Shown: positions 16,589 through 63,122 of the stretch, piece by piece
Layout: the number at the start of each line of letters is the position of its first letter
Numbering within the stretch: the first letter of the stretch is position 1
NCBI GenBank assembly: GCA_041674925.1
Contig: JBAYUW010000004.1
Span: 482-64,481, forward strand
Source: Minisyncoccota bacterium
GTDB taxonomy: Bacteria > Patescibacteriota > Minisyncoccia > Phycocordibacterales > GWA1-40-21
Direction: 5' to 3'
DNA: 64,000 nt
Program-made: the position numbers and the translations under genes
Notes under the pieces: generated by a model
Told to the model about the DNA's origin: nothing
Seen by the model: the letters and a program-made list of their open reading frames with translations, nothing else
The model's database searches: none

Positions 16589-16662
16589 GGGCGATTAGCT
16601 CAGCTGGTTAGAGCGTACGATTCACATTCGTAAGGCCACAGGTTCGATTCCTGTATCGCCCA
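16589..16662 (+). tRNA. tRNA-Val (anticodon CAC)
   Basis: Hand-folded cloverleaf GGGCGAT/ATCGCCC, D arm GCTC..GAGC, anticodon stem TACGA/TCGTA with loop TTCACAT, T arm ACAGG TTCGATT CCTGT. A TATAAT lies 12 nt upstream. Confidence 0.85.
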
Positions 16663-16717
16663 CCGTTATCTTTTAGACAAATCGAGGAGATGTTATCCGT
16701 TGCGGTGTAAAAGTGGG

Positions 16718-16790
16718 TGGACCCTACAGGACTCGAACCTGCCACCCCCTCATTGCAAATGAGGTGCTCTACCAGATGAGCTAAGGGCCC
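16718..16790 (-). tRNA. tRNA-Cys (anticodon GCA)
   Basis: Minus strand GGGCCCT TA GCTC ATCTGGTA GAGC A CCTCA TTTGCAA TGAGG GGGTG GCAGG TTCGAGT CCTGT AGGGTCC A. Confidence 0.85.
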
Positions 16791-16799
16791 AGTGGATAT

Positions 16800-54912: not shown

Positions 54913-56844
54913 CTAAATCCCAGGTTGCGGAATCACTACGCGCTCACGACGCGAAGCGAGACGGGTAAGCTTATCTGAGAGCCGATAAATATAGATCTCG
55001 GGTCCGCCATTATATCGATCCACGCCTGCAACAAAAAACTCGTCACCCACCTTAAACAGAAAGTAGGTCATCCACTTGTAGGGGTGTAGGTGCTCTGTTT
55101 TCTTTTCGCAGAATTCAATAATCTGATCCTGTGTAAAACACAAACGATCAAGATCTACACCAAATCCACTGAAGATCTGCTGGAAAAGGCCATCATTGAT
55201 CATTTCCAGAACATGAACAGGAGTTGCAGGCCTTTCTTCACTCTCAATATCTGTTCCGTAATTGATGAAATCTTCATCAATATATCTAGGAAAAAGGTCT
55301 TTTGCTTTCGCAATCGTCTTTTTTCCGCTAGTAGGTCCAATTGTGATTATCTTACCCTCGGAGACCGAATGAAGATACGGATTTTCCTCTAATGTGTTAT
55401 TGTTTTCCAATCTATTCCTTTCGTCCTCCATTTCTTTTTTCGAGCTAATCATCTTGAGAACACTAATACCATTTTTTGTTGGAATGTACGCATGAGAAGA
55501 ATTACACCACCTCAGATCTGGGATATTAGGATGAGAAATTACTATTGGAATTAGTGGGTGTGGTGGATTAGTTTTGAAATAAAAAGGATTATCTGGAGAT
55601 GCCACTACAGCTTTTTTAAGCACTCCATCCTGCTGATCAAATAGTTTTTTAACTGACTCAATATATCTATTGTAAGTGGCGTTTCCTTCGCTAAAGCCAA
55701 ACATCGGTCTATTAAAATTATCAAAGACAGATAAGGGACTACTCTTATCTCTATCTAAATTCCAAATTCCTCCTTTCTGAACACTTAGACCGAAGCCGTG
55801 TATTAAAAAATTACCATCCTCAATATATGTTTGAAGTTTTTTGTAATCTCCCGGGTCATCAGATACTATTCTATCAATTTCACTTATTTCACCGTTAGGA
55901 CCAATAGAAGAAAATACAGTGTAGCCATAATCTTTTGTGCCATCGGATCTCACGGCCTCTCCAACCTCAGGGTCAAATATCTTCTGCATTAAGATTTTGT
56001 CAGAAAAACTCTCAAAACCTGGACCGTGGTATAGACTCATAACATGAATATTTTCTTTTTTAAAAAAAGAATTTCCTAATATATCGATAATATTTTTCAG
56101 CGTAGAGATTATTTTCCATATATTCTCTTCTAGTTCGTCGAGGCTTTTATTTTTATAACGAACGTAATGATCCGCTTTCAAAATATTGTTTCTAATAAAA
56201 TAGATCATTGTGTGATAATTATCAAAAGACTCAAGAGAATCTATAGAATTTAACTTTCTAAAATTAACAATATCTTCGTCAAGAGAAAAATTTTTATCTA
56301 AATTTTCAATATAAAGTTCTATTATCTCTTTAATTTCATTTATGGATAAAATCTGCGAAAAAATATCATTTATCTCTTTCCATGTCAATTCTTTTCTCAA
56401 ATACCCCTCAACTCCACCGGTCTCCTTAATTAAACGTTCTGGAAATTTAACTAATTTTTCCTTTGGAGTAACCTCTATACCATTTATAATGACTTTATGA
56501 AAAATAGATTCTATCTCATTCGCGCGTATATTAAAAGATTTTCTAATAATATCGGGCATTTCATTACCCATGATGAAGTCTCTATAATAATTACTTAGTG
56601 TATTACTAAAGAATCCGGGGTGCGTTTCACAATATTTATATATATCAAAATGCCTGAAACTATTTCTCTGTAAAAATTCTCTTATAAATTCTGCTTTTAC
56701 CTCATCTGGAGGAACATATTCATCAAATATTTTGGAATACTCCCATTTGGTTTTATCTTGCTGATTAATGAAATCGTCATACATTTGATTTGGATCCAGA
56801 ATATCACACTCCTCTTGTTTATTTTCTATTTTGAATGATTCCAT
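54913..56844 (-). CDS. large orphan cytoplasmic protein, 643 aa
   Basis: Uninterrupted 1.9-kb ORF with no signal peptide and no motif I recognise. Leaderless-type TGcTATATT box. Confidence 0.6.
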   Translation of the reverse strand: MESFKIENKQEECDILDPNQMYDDFINQQDKTKWEYSKIFDEYVPPDEVKAEFIREFLQRNSFRHFDIYKYCETHPGFFSNTLSNYYRDFIMGNEMPDIIRKSFNIRANEIESIFHKVIINGIEVTPKEKLVKFPERLIKETGGVEGYLRKELTWKEINDIFSQILSINEIKEIIELYIENLDKNFSLDEDIVNFRKLNSIDSLESFDNYHTMIYFIRNNILKADHYVRYKNKSLDELEENIWKIISTLKNIIDILGNSFFKKENIHVMSLYHGPGFESFSDKILMQKIFDPEVGEAVRSDGTKDYGYTVFSSIGPNGEISEIDRIVSDDPGDYKKLQTYIEDGNFLIHGFGLSVQKGGIWNLDRDKSSPLSVFDNFNRPMFGFSEGNATYNRYIESVKKLFDQQDGVLKKAVVASPDNPFYFKTNPPHPLIPIVISHPNIPDLRWCNSSHAYIPTKNGISVLKMISSKKEMEDERNRLENNNTLEENPYLHSVSEGKIITIGPTSGKKTIAKAKDLFPRYIDEDFINYGTDIESEERPATPVHVLEMINDGLFQQIFSGFGVDLDRLCFTQDQIIEFCEKKTEHLHPYKWMTYFLFKVGDEFFVAGVDRYNGGPEIYIYRLSDKLTRLASRRERVVIPQPGI

Positions 56845-56859: not shown

Positions 56860-57072
56860 AATTATTGTACTCGAGACAAATTATTGAGAATATGTTGAAA
56901 AGTAAATGTGTATGATTTGGCTAACAAGATTGGTGTGACATAAATAGGATTCCGCCTTTTACCAAAGATAAAAAGTTCGAACCATCAGAATGGGTACCTC
57001 AAAACACCTTTGATTTATAGGGCTGAAACTTTTGCTCCGTGGGTAGGGATCGAACCTACGACCAATCGCTTA

Positions 57073-57653
57073 CATTTTGTCCAAAATTTCTTTTGGTATG
57101 GACTATATCATCATCCTTCATTTTATTGAGTGGGATGTGGGGCGCTTCGCTAGTCATCCTAAAATGACAGCTACTCTCTTGCGAGATAGTCTCTGAACCT
57201 TTACGTCAATCGACGCACTTGGCTGCTGATTGCCCACGACTTTCTTTAAAAAAGATACGTTTGGGTTTCCAGCAATTCACCTCATTTTTCATCCTAAATT
57301 ACTTTAGGAAGCTGCGTAATACCGTCATGTACTTCCATATGACAATTAGAACAGACCAGGACACATTTCTTAATTTCTCTCTCAATTTTTTCCCAAGAAC
57401 GAGTCAAACCCCTCGACGAGAGATCGAAATTTTTCTTCTTTGGATCAATATGATGGAAACTAAGTGCTCTCTGACATTTACTATAGCCACACAAAATACA
57501 CTTATTGCCTTTAGATGTTCTGGCCATCTCACGAAGTTTTCTTCTTCTTCGTTTAACAGCCTCTCGCATATAAACAGCACGGTCGGCATAAGTCCTTGTT
57601 TCTTTTTTGGTATACATATATGAAGTATACCAAGAAAATTAGAACTTCTCAAC
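57073..57653 (-). mobile_element. group I-like intron (~581 nt) with homing-endonuclease ORF
   Basis: 5' exon ends in U and the intron ends in G. AAGGUUCAGAGACUAUC (57185-57201) matches the conserved core of bacterial tRNA group I introns. The HNH ORF occupies the 5' part. Confidence 0.7.
57294..57617 (-). CDS. HNH homing endonuclease, 107 aa (intron-encoded)
   Basis: CILCGY..ALSFHHIDP..(N)..LVCSNCHMEVH: HNH motif with flanking Cys pairs. Basic N-terminus. Confidence 0.8.
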   Translation of the reverse strand: MYTKKETRTYADRAVYMREAVKRRRRKLREMARTSKGNKCILCGYSKCQRALSFHHIDPKKKNFDLSSRGLTRSWEKIEREIKKCVLVCSNCHMEVHDGITQLPKVI

Positions 57654-57773
57654 ACAGGCGATCGCTCTACCGCTGAGCTACCACGGAATATCTATTCAAT
57701 TGTAATGAACAGTGTTCTTGTCAGAACTCTCATATACTAACAGAAAGTCAGAGAAAAATAAAGAGGACAGCGA

Positions 57774-58637
57774 CTAGCGCTTGATTGGCAATTGCAAACA
57801 GAACGTCGAGCCCTTGTTCGGTCCGGGTGATTCGGCCCAGAGTTTACCGCCATGATGCTTGGTGATATTACGAGCGGTGTAGAGACCGAGACCCAAACCT
57901 TCAGTGTCGGCCAAACGTGCACTTTTGGAACGATAAAAATGTTTGAAAATTTTTCGACCATCAAAGAAGCCGAAACCGATGCCGTTATCTTTTATCTTTA
58001 GGGTGATGTATTTTTCTGAAACACCAAACAGAGCGTTGATTTGACCTTCACGTGGAGTGTATTTGAGAGCATTATCGATCAACATATCAACGACAAATTG
58101 TATTTTCGCTTTATCAATTATCACTAACGGTAATTCCCTATCGGAATCAACTGAGAATTTAATATTTTTATCGCGAATCATCGCTGAGTATTTATTCATC
58201 GACGTTGTGACAATTTCTCTCAAAGAGACAGCCTCAAAAGCATACTCCAACCGTCGATCAAACTTGGCGAAACCAACCAAGAGATCCACAATTTCCATCA
58301 GTCTCTCGTTAGCTTTTTCCATCTCCATTAAAAGATCTTTTTTCTCCAATAGAGTTATGTCTTTTTGCAGCATGTTTATCGTCCAGCGAATACCAGTCAG
58401 CGGGGTTCGAAATTTATGAGTAATGATGGTGATAAATTGATCCCGAGCTTTCGTATTTTCAATTTCACGATAAATAAATAACAAAATAATAACGATAATT
58501 AGAATAAGGGATAAAAATAGAATAACTGACTCATCAAGTAGGGCGAGACGAGTATCTTTAAAGAAGTTGATTCCCGTTAAAAAGACTAGGGATAGAGCCA
58601 AGAAAATGACGAACAAAAAACTATAGCTTCTTTTCAT
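57774..58637 (-). CDS. sensor histidine kinase
   Basis: Two TM helices, H-box ITHKFRTPLTGI, N box DNALKYT, G boxes DNGIGF and GLGLGLY. Start set at ATG 58637; the track starts at a TTG at 58658. Confidence 0.8.
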   Translation of the reverse strand: MKRSYSFLFVIFLALSLVFLTGINFFKDTRLALLDESVILFLSLILIIVIILLFIYREIENTKARDQFITIITHKFRTPLTGIRWTINMLQKDITLLEKKDLLMEMEKANERLMEIVDLLVGFAKFDRRLEYAFEAVSLREIVTTSMNKYSAMIRDKNIKFSVDSDRELPLVIIDKAKIQFVVDMLIDNALKYTPREGQINALFGVSEKYITLKIKDNGIGFGFFDGRKIFKHFYRSKSARLADTEGLGLGLYTARNITKHHGGKLWAESPGPNKGSTFCLQLPIKR

Positions 58638-62549: not shown

Positions 62550-63122
62550 ATGCTTAAAGAAACTACACCAACCAAGCAAATTAATACTCAAAACGTGACG
62601 GGTTTACATCTAGAAATCTTTGGTGATTTTTCTTTGATTCGTGGAGATGTTAAAAATATTAAAGGAAATTTGAGTTTACATAAAATCACTGGTGACGTTT
62701 CAAATATCAGTGGAGATATTCAAGGTGTGTCTGGTGATGTTACAAAATCCCGAGGCGATGTGACGGATATTATTGGTGATGTTTCAAACATCCGCGGACT
62801 TATTTCTCCCATTGCCGGCGATATTAGTGGAATTATTGGCGATGTATCTAATATTTCTGGCGATGTTAGCAATATCCGCGGTAATGTTAGTAAAATTTCT
62901 GGCGACACTTCCAATATTATCGGCAGTGTCAGTGATTTATCTGGCGACGTCAGTCGGTTGAAAGGTAATGTTACCGGACTCAAAGGTTTTGTCAGTAATC
63001 TTTCTGGCCTAGCTACAAATATTAAAGGCGATGTCACAAATGTGTACGGCGATGTCACCGGTCTCGAAGGCGACGCGACGGGGCTGTCTGGGGATGTGAG
63101 GGAGTTGTTGGGCAAGAAATAG
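62550..63122 (+). CDS. heptad-repeat (GDVSNIx)n protein, 190 aa
   Basis: After a 24-aa head, 23 consecutive 7-residue units G-[DNS]-[VI]-[ST]-x-[IL]-x. No signal peptide. Confidence 0.6.
   Translation: MLKETTPTKQINTQNVTGLHLEIFGDFSLIRGDVKNIKGNLSLHKITGDVSNISGDIQGVSGDVTKSRGDVTDIIGDVSNIRGLISPIAGDISGIIGDVSNISGDVSNIRGNVSKISGDTSNIIGSVSDLSGDVSRLKGNVTGLKGFVSNLSGLATNIKGDVTNVYGDVTGLEGDATGLSGDVRELLGKK
62622..63110 (+). repeat. imperfect 21-nt tandem repeat array (coding, in frame)
   Basis: Units such as GGTGATGTTTCAAATATCAGT / GGCGATGTTAGCAATATCCGC. Codons vary while the peptide pattern is kept. Confidence 0.8.

Follow-up and report, generated by a model that had tools for sequence, protein, structure and literature searches.

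The 64,000-nucleotide (nt) stretch analysed here (hereafter the window; 39% G+C), from a draft Paceibacterota metagenome-assembled genome (MAG), raises the question of how a tRNA-Asn(GUU) gene can serve its host when 581 nt stand inside its anticodon. The gene lies on the minus strand in two exons, and the sequence between them has the fold of a group I intron and contains an open reading frame (ORF) for an HNH endonuclease of 107 amino acids (aa). The explanation that we favour, at a probability of roughly 0.88 for the whole of it, is that the gene is split between anticodon positions 35 and 36 by an IA-type group I intron, which splices itself and carries a homing HNH gene in the loop of P1, the helix formed at the 5' splice site.

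The exons read TCCGTGGTAGCTCAGCGGTAGAGCGATCGCCTGT (5') and TAAGCGATTGGTCGTAGGTTCGATCCCTACCCACGGAG (3') on the minus strand (Table 1). Joined, they gave 72 nt that ARAGORN identified as tRNA-Asn(gtt), a regular cloverleaf in which every pair is kept. The tRNA has a U1-A72 acceptor pair, G73, a 5-nt variable loop and the T arm GUAGG/UUCGAUC/CCUAC; no CCA is encoded in the 3' exon. U1-A72 and G73 are also features of tRNA-Asn from E. coli. With the unspliced region as input, ARAGORN in intron mode returned tRNA-Asn(gtt) i(35,581), an intron of 581 nt after position 35. Intron mode was necessary because the default mode, run over the whole window, missed the locus and reported only a tRNA-Val and a tRNA-Ala. 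Neither ARAGORN nor Rfam found a second tRNA-Asn within the 64 kb of the window. An initial annotation of this DNA had proposed the same exons, the same 72-nt tRNA-Asn(GUU) and the same details of its arms, and had named the intron-mode search as a way to check them; ARAGORN agreed on both the joined and the unspliced sequence, and every coordinate and every statement about the window sequence in that annotation proved correct when checked.

Table 1. Features of the split tRNA-Asn locus (positions in the window) and of related loci (positions within the L-numbered locus).
Feature	Position	Strand	Description	Source
tRNA-Asn 5' exon	57654-57687	-	34 nt; acceptor, D arm, 5' anticodon stem, C32 U33 G34 U35	ARAGORN; same exon structure in 33 related loci
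tRNA-Asn 3' exon	57035-57072	-	38 nt; U36 A37 A38, 3' anticodon stem, 5-nt variable loop, T arm, acceptor, G73	ARAGORN
Group I intron	57073-57653	-	581 nt, between anticodon positions 35 and 36; U before it, ends in G (omega-G at 57073)	Rfam, ARAGORN, relatives
P1, 5' strand	57652-57657	-	CUGU/GU, last four bases of the exon and first two of the intron; U-G wobble of U35 at the splice site	
P1, 3' strand (internal guide sequence)	57312-57317	-	ACGCAG; within the ORF, codons ACG CAG (Thr-Gln)	
HNH endonuclease ORF	57294-57617	-	107 aa; within the P1 loop; 3' end crosses the guide sequence into P2; stop UAG (57296-57294) in the 3' strand of P2	
Promoter-like site in intron	57624-57652	-	TTGAGA (-35-like, intron nt 2-7), 17-nt spacer, TG-n-TATACT; ATG 6 nt on	
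P2	57293-57308	-	Hairpin CCUAAA-GUAA-UUUAGG; 95.5% of cells paired, compensatory changes in 5 of 6 pairs	
Ribozyme core	57081-57284	-	P3-P9	
P3	57284-57278/57144-57138	-		
P4	57274-57269/57229-57224	-		
P5	57265-57262/57236-57233	-		
P6 and P6a	57223-57197	-		
P7	57191-57187/57105-57101	-	GACUA/UAGUC; pseudoknot with P3	
P7.1	57186-57175	-	UCUC-GCAA-GAGA; between P7 and the 3' strand of P3	
P7.2	57171-57149	-	8 bp; between P7.1 and the 3' strand of P3	
P8	57137-57133/57116-57112	-		
P9	57096-57081	-		
Free-standing HNH gene with ORF-less intron	L005:3001-3777; L008:3001-3645; L009:332-976; L016:3001-3665; L027:574-1357; L034:1040-1741			
L008/L009 intron	L008:3391-3606; L009:722-937		216 nt, tRNA-Asn 35/36; without P7.1/P7.2; about 57% like the other ribozymes	

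Related loci were collected by scanning one genome per GTDB species for relatives of the HNH protein, which gave 39 loci (L-numbered), 38 of them in Patescibacteria MAGs. A pairing-based search of these relatives found a split tRNA-Asn, with CTGT before the intron, G as the last intron base and TAA after it, at 33 of the 39 loci, and all four stems of the tRNA were fully paired in 32. Many of the MAG contigs (L001, L002, L005, L012, L015, L021 and L038) end in the tRNA-Asn or a few bases past it. It seems that assemblies break here, perhaps through polymorphism in the presence of the intron or endonuclease or through repeated tRNA sequence.

The boundaries of the intron, a U before it and a G at its end, had been assigned in the initial annotation by the group I rule, and both the ARAGORN call and the sequence bear them out. 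A group I covariance model, which that annotation had proposed as a further check, matched as well: Rfam RF00028 (Intron_gpI) aligned to 57340-57080 (minus strand) over model positions 1-253 of 253 with 79.1 bits (E 1.9e-18), the gathering score being 50 bits. The last intron base was G in 34 of 34 family introns. The GCAG of the guide sequence, which pairs with CUGU of the 5' exon, was likewise kept in 34 of 34 members, the guide having been picked among the relatives by requiring GCAGCT. Covariation in P1 (GU/AC, AU/AU and CG/UG pairs) was visible on the intron side only, because the exon side is invariant. The P1 and P2 assigned by Rfam (57340-57295) were rejected in favour of 57657-57652 paired with 57317-57312 as the true P1. 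The Rfam assignment is a look-alike hairpin in coding sequence, GGAAGU/GCUUCC within the ORF, and its GGAAGU forms codons of the conserved Met-Glu-Val in the HNH motif.

The same boundaries decide between tRNA-Asn and a tRNA-Thr(UGU) with an intron at 33/34, in which the splice sites would lie two bases to the left. The sequence CUGU/GU...UG/UAA permits such a slide; ARAGORN called roughly half of the related loci Thr(tgt) i(33), and both ARAGORN and tFind label many relatives in this way. We rejected this assignment, to which we give next to no credence. The slid intron would end in A rather than G in the window. No guide complementary to the slid exon end, GCCU, is present; CUGU, by contrast, has its partner in the invariant GCAG, U-G wobble included. 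The U1-A72 pair and G73 are those of tRNA-Asn in E. coli. The joined tRNA had 55 identities to an intron-less tRNA-Asn compared to 49 and 45 to tRNA-Thr, and it was also nearer to tRNA-Asn than to tRNA-Asp, tRNA-Lys and tRNA-His, a weak test, since the reference tRNAs belong to a distant array. Finally, the spliced product of a relative has been sequenced and has its junction at 35/36 (PMC13011429).

That study, by Nakagawa, Amikura, Omae and Suzuki (mSystems, 30 Jan 2026; PMC13011429; preprint 10.1101/2025.07.03.662931, 3 Jul 2025), covered 95 complete Patescibacteria genomes and described group I introns at 35/36 in 15 tRNA-Asn(GUU) and 3 tRNA-Asp(GUC) genes; it credits Williams 2020 (bioRxiv 10.1101/2020.01.27.920355) with having listed the class first, as 'Asn.4Ug'. 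The initial annotation, which knew of no described group I intron at this position of tRNA-Asn, is out of date on this point. One tRNA-Asn intron (GCA_016700035.1) and one tRNA-Asp intron self-spliced in vitro in a GTP-dependent manner, with the ligated junction sequenced, and mutation of omega-G to C stopped the reaction at exon ligation (PMC13011429). Among 28 introns at 35/36, 25 were of subgroup IA; nearly all tRNA introns of Patescibacteria were IA and none was IC. Just 12 of 333 bacterial tRNA introns exceeded 500 bp, and four of those were Patescibacteria tRNA-Asn 35/36 introns with an HNH gene (PF01844). Annotation tools often missed the split genes or miscalled them as Thr(UGU) at 33/34, and completeness estimates for Patescibacteria genomes are distorted because the usual tRNA finders overlook or mislabel it (PMC13011429).

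As far as can be judged in silico, the element in the window shares every defining feature of this class, and its arrangement is thus already published. Phylum, tRNA and anticodon, insertion site, the U before the intron, omega-G, the IA-type core and, as in four of theirs, a length above 500 nt with an HNH gene all agree, as does the two-base ambiguity between Asn and Thr in annotation tools. The difference in origin is that the published set comes from complete genomes whereas the window is part of a draft MAG, and to this extent it adds one example to the class. That an essential tRNA of a reduced genome relies on a ribozyme for its maturation is a point already made by those authors. The main text of PMC13011429 is silent on an ORF in the P1 loop, on overlap of the ORF with the guide and P2, on an internal promoter and on free-standing copies of the endonuclease.

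A foldable P3-P7 core, which the initial annotation had left to be looked for, is present, with P3 through P9 formed and a pseudoknot between P3 and P7. Covariation was examined in a MAFFT alignment of 33 distinct ribozymes, including that of the window, with a structure derived from the window sequence. Standard pairs filled 88.7% of cells compared to 34-51% when the partners were slid by 1-3 columns, a contrast that is somewhat favoured because the structure came from one of the aligned sequences. This origin does not explain the compensatory pairs that were found in P2, P3, P4, P5, P6a, P7.1, P8 and P9. Compensatory changes affected 41 of the 60 pairs, and the covariation score was reached by none of 500 shuffles. 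The proportion of cells paired was 96.5% in P3, 98% in P4, 88.6% in P5, 98% in P6, 99.4% in P7 and 89.6% in P8; in P7.1 it was 94.6%, with two compensatory pairs. Lower values in P7.2 (59.6%) and P9 (77.8%) reflect poor alignment of P7.2 and of the outer parts of P9 by MAFFT. Because P7.2 aligned badly, each sequence was folded singly, and the pattern of two hairpins, P7.1 and P7.2, was then seen in 32 of the 33 family members.

The two hairpins are a hallmark of subgroup IA in Michel and Westhof's classification, and judged by them the intron is subgroup-IA-like. Subgroup IC3, which has a compact core without P7.1 and P7.2, was ruled out by the 38-nt insertion at 57186-57149 that forms them. 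This bears on a match that the initial annotation had seen to the core of the Azoarcus and Anabaena tRNA introns. The motif is indeed there (AAGGTTCAGAGACTATC, 57201-57185, minus strand), but the kinship it seemed to imply does not hold: AAGGU.CAGAGACUA is the generic J6/7-P7 core of group I introns, present in the Rfam consensus too, and the intron is IA-like and not IC3. The classical bacterial tRNA introns, in tRNA-Leu(UAA) at 34/35 and tRNA-fMet at 33/34 of cyanobacteria (Anabaena), in tRNA-Ile(CAU) of Azoarcus and in tRNA-Arg(CCU) at 36/37 of Agrobacterium, resemble the predicted self-splicing intron of the window in being group I introns of the anticodon loop with the anticodon stem flanking the splice sites. 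They differ from it in subgroup (IC3), in length (about 200-250 nt), in being mostly ORF-less and in their positions.

The IA introns of phages that carry endonuclease genes, such as those of T4 td, nrdB and sunY, of Twort and of the SPO1-type DNA polymerase, are similar to the window's intron in having an IA-type core with P7.1 and P7.2 and an endonuclease ORF looped out of a peripheral element. In contrast, they interrupt protein-coding genes of phages, and the intron described here interrupts the anticodon loop of a chromosomal tRNA in a reduced genome. Part of its core (57187-57300, minus strand) is 72-73% identical to a stretch in the DNA polymerase genes of the Enterococcus phages Pumpjack, fHoEfa06, TV16 and PEF7b; these stretches are presumably IA introns. 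A scan of viral contigs for relatives of the HNH protein returned one distant relative only and so gave no sign of a phage vehicle. A 436-kb IMG/VR contig, very large for a virus (L040), carries a distant HNH relative with 53% identity. Another distant relative, also with 53% identity, lies in a Pyrinomonadaceae MAG (L037:3001-6249) next to 21 arrayed tRNA genes, among them an intron-less tRNA-Asn; both of these occurrences are outside Patescibacteria.

The ORF in the P1 loop had been read in the initial annotation as a 107-aa HNH protein, and profile comparison agreed. The PHROG HNH families phrog_2255 (E 3.6e-27) and phrog_3106 (E 3.6e-25) matched it, and several of its close homologues carry a precomputed PF01844 match; among NCBIfam profiles run against the window proteins, the ORF gave just a spurious match below threshold. 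Its HNH motif reads C-I-L-C ... F-H-H ... K-N-F ... C-S-N-C-H-M-E-V-H, and the elements C-x2-C, H-H, N and C-x-N-C-H-x3-H, which comprise the catalytic His-His, Asn and His and two pairs of Cys for zinc, were conserved in 37 of 37 aligned relatives. An exact look-up of the protein found no identical entry on record. Its homologues form 464 clusters, up to 91% identical, and those named by organism are mostly from Patescibacteria metagenome bins. The ratio of nonsynonymous to synonymous substitution rates (dN/dS) against the window was 0.05-0.23 wherever dS was unsaturated: the gene is under purifying selection and intact. Its location in an intron and its family make cleavage of intron-less tRNA-Asn genes, and with it homing of the intron, the most likely function of the enzyme.

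A different role for the protein has to be weighed here, in place of homing or in addition to it: it might, as a maturase, assist the splicing of an intron with a 330-nt P1 loop, or it might be a domesticated nuclease. Such a role is compatible with the split gene as described above. A dN/dS of 0.05-0.23 over deep divergence, where dS is often saturated, is more constraint than would be expected of a purely selfish gene in a fixed intron, and the family persists as free-standing genes beside ORF-less introns. Nevertheless we think such a role unlikely. All nuclease and zinc residues are conserved, no RNA-binding domain was detected in the protein with Pfam, NCBIfam or PHROG, the intron has ORF-less relatives, and related introns self-splice without protein (PMC13011429).

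The HNH gene is interlocked with the ribozyme at its 3' end. The stretch ACG CAG CUU CCU AAA GUA AUU UAG in its last nine codons (57294-57320) doubles as guide sequence, as J1/2 and as the greater part of P2. Nearly all intron-borne relatives encode Ile-Thr-Gln-Leu-Pro (ITQLP) at the guide codons, and in the free-standing ones this sequence has drifted to ITKIP, to ISILP or to unrelated tails. This is the pattern that a double constraint, on the protein and on the guide RNA, would produce.

The start of the gene has a conserved feature of its own. The sequence TGGTATA[AC]T, with a start codon 6 nt behind it, is found again in most relatives, in those within introns as well as in free-standing ones, and similar TGnTAnAAT boxes lie upstream of tRNA genes in L010, L016, L022, L025 and L038. 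The mRNA may be leaderless, because a transcript that starts about 7 nt past the -10 box would begin at the AUG. As a lead, this suggests an endonuclease gene with its own promoter and a leaderless mRNA. ORFs in introns of T4 have promoters of their own.

Put together, these features would allow the following sequence of events. A precursor would be transcribed from upstream of 57687, and the guide ACGCAG would pair with CUGU/GU at the 5' splice site to form P1 with its U35-G wobble. The P3-P9 core would bind guanosine, which would attack after U35. The terminal G (57073) would then occupy the guanosine site and the exons would be ligated, yielding the 72-nt tRNA with the anticodon loop CUGUUAA. 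The HNH gene in the P1 loop would be expressed from the promoter-like site, its start codon lying about at the start of transcription. Precise GTP-dependent self-splicing at 35/36 has been shown for close relatives, and by analogy with these we infer that the window copy splices.

Several observations weigh against parts of this account. P1 has just 6 pairs and must close over a 330-nt loop, and the look-alike hairpin GGAAGU/GCUUCC in the ORF could draw one base of the guide and the beginning of P2 away from their true pairing. Inspection by eye showed no convincing P10 helix formed with the 3' exon. P3 contains an A.C mismatch (57282 with 57140) where 30 of the 33 relatives have an A-U pair; it is probably tolerated, because L018 carries the same mismatch. 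The Pfam HNH model PF01844 scored 21.0 bits on the ORF, just under its cut-off of 21.4. A scan of 56900-57900 for sigma-70-like promoters found one site, that at 57652-57624 (minus strand), where shuffled sequence led us to expect 2.1; because this count is not above chance, it is only the conservation of the motif that speaks for a promoter. The motif is also one half of an inverted repeat, GGTATAC...GTATACC, and could serve another role.

The mismatch in P3 would also suit a tRNA-Asn gene killed by a mobile insertion that no longer splices, with tRNA-Asn supplied by another gene; the 64 kb inspected are a part of the genome, which leaves room for such a gene. We consider a dead gene very improbable. 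Both exons keep every pair of the cloverleaf. The ribozyme of the window retains all 50 positions that are invariant in the family and differs in a single base, that of the A.C mismatch in P3, from the consensus of the other 32 ribozymes at the 90% level or above. The split gene has, moreover, been kept with compensatory changes in 33 other species-level genomes.

The related loci differ in where the endonuclease gene lies. At six of them (L005, L008, L009, L016, L027 and L034) the same HNH family is encoded outside the intron, next to a tRNA-Asn with an ORF-less 35/36 intron of 216-317 nt. The HNH gene ends 10-60 nt upstream of the tRNA-Asn in L005, L008, L009 and L016. It is likewise upstream in L015, where the contig stops before the tRNA. 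In L027 the HNH gene and the tRNA are divergent, with about 126 nt between them, and in L034 the HNH gene lies downstream. The free-standing proteins of L005 and L027 were nearest to the intron-borne proteins of L010 and L018 (87% identity each), and the ribozymes of L005/L010 and L027/L018 were likewise each other's nearest (76% and 80%). This implies that the HNH gene has changed its place, entering or leaving the intron, on at least three occasions. The 216-nt intron of L008 and L009, which does not look like IA, may be a different lineage at the same site. Because the same HNH family lies upstream of it, the endonuclease seems to follow the tRNA-Asn site and not one intron lineage.

A tentative reading of these loci, to which we give somewhat less than an even chance, is that the HNH gene is a self-contained cassette, made up of an extended -10 box, a probably leaderless start and the 107-aa ORF, that tracks the tRNA-Asn gene and not one intron. 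In the copies within the P1 loop, the last codons (ACG CAG CUU CC) would have been recruited as guide and P2. If so, the loci would capture, at a tRNA on bacterial chromosomes, natural stages of the proposed pathway by which a free-standing endonuclease invades an intron, and tRNA-Asn introns bearing homing endonuclease genes would be far commoner than complete genomes, with 4 of 333, suggest.

A free-standing endonuclease beside an intron without one recalls the 'collaborative homing' reportedly described by Zeng, Bonocora and Shub in 2009 and by Bonocora and Shub in 2009, in which the psbA intron of cyanophage S-PM2 is said to work with the free-standing F-CphI. The likeness, which is drawn from the genes alone, is that of free-standing HNH genes beside ORF-less tRNA-Asn introns in the related loci. 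The differences are that the host here is a bacterial chromosome and the presumed target gene a tRNA, and that in the window itself the HNH gene is inside the intron. No arrangement of this kind, with a free-standing HNH gene, was found in the main text of PMC13011429. It is in this comparison that the present analysis possibly adds something, with an HNH family that, at 464 protein clusters and 39 GTDB species representatives, is abundant, that is both intron-borne and free-standing, that is preceded by a conserved promoter-like motif and that, in its intron-borne form, shares codons with the guide. The comparison bears on how endonuclease genes colonise introns.

The genes around the split tRNA-Asn agree with the assignment of the host. 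An acetate kinase and a 643-aa hypothetical protein encoded in the flanks are exact matches to the Candidatus Paceibacterota MAG proteins MFA7252561.1 and MFA7252557.1, which are encoded on a contig of 104 kb. The 643-aa protein (54913-56844, minus strand), next to the tRNA-Asn, has no Pfam domain and is the sole member of its own cluster at 90% identity. The only other tRNA genes of the window, tRNA-Val(CAC) on the plus strand and tRNA-Ala(UGC) on the minus strand (16589-16791), converge with about 50 nt between them. A 190-aa ORF at 62550-63122 (plus strand) consists of imperfect 7-residue repeats (for example GDVSNIS-GDVSNIR), with 21-nt tandem repeats at 62837-62905 and 63015-63058.

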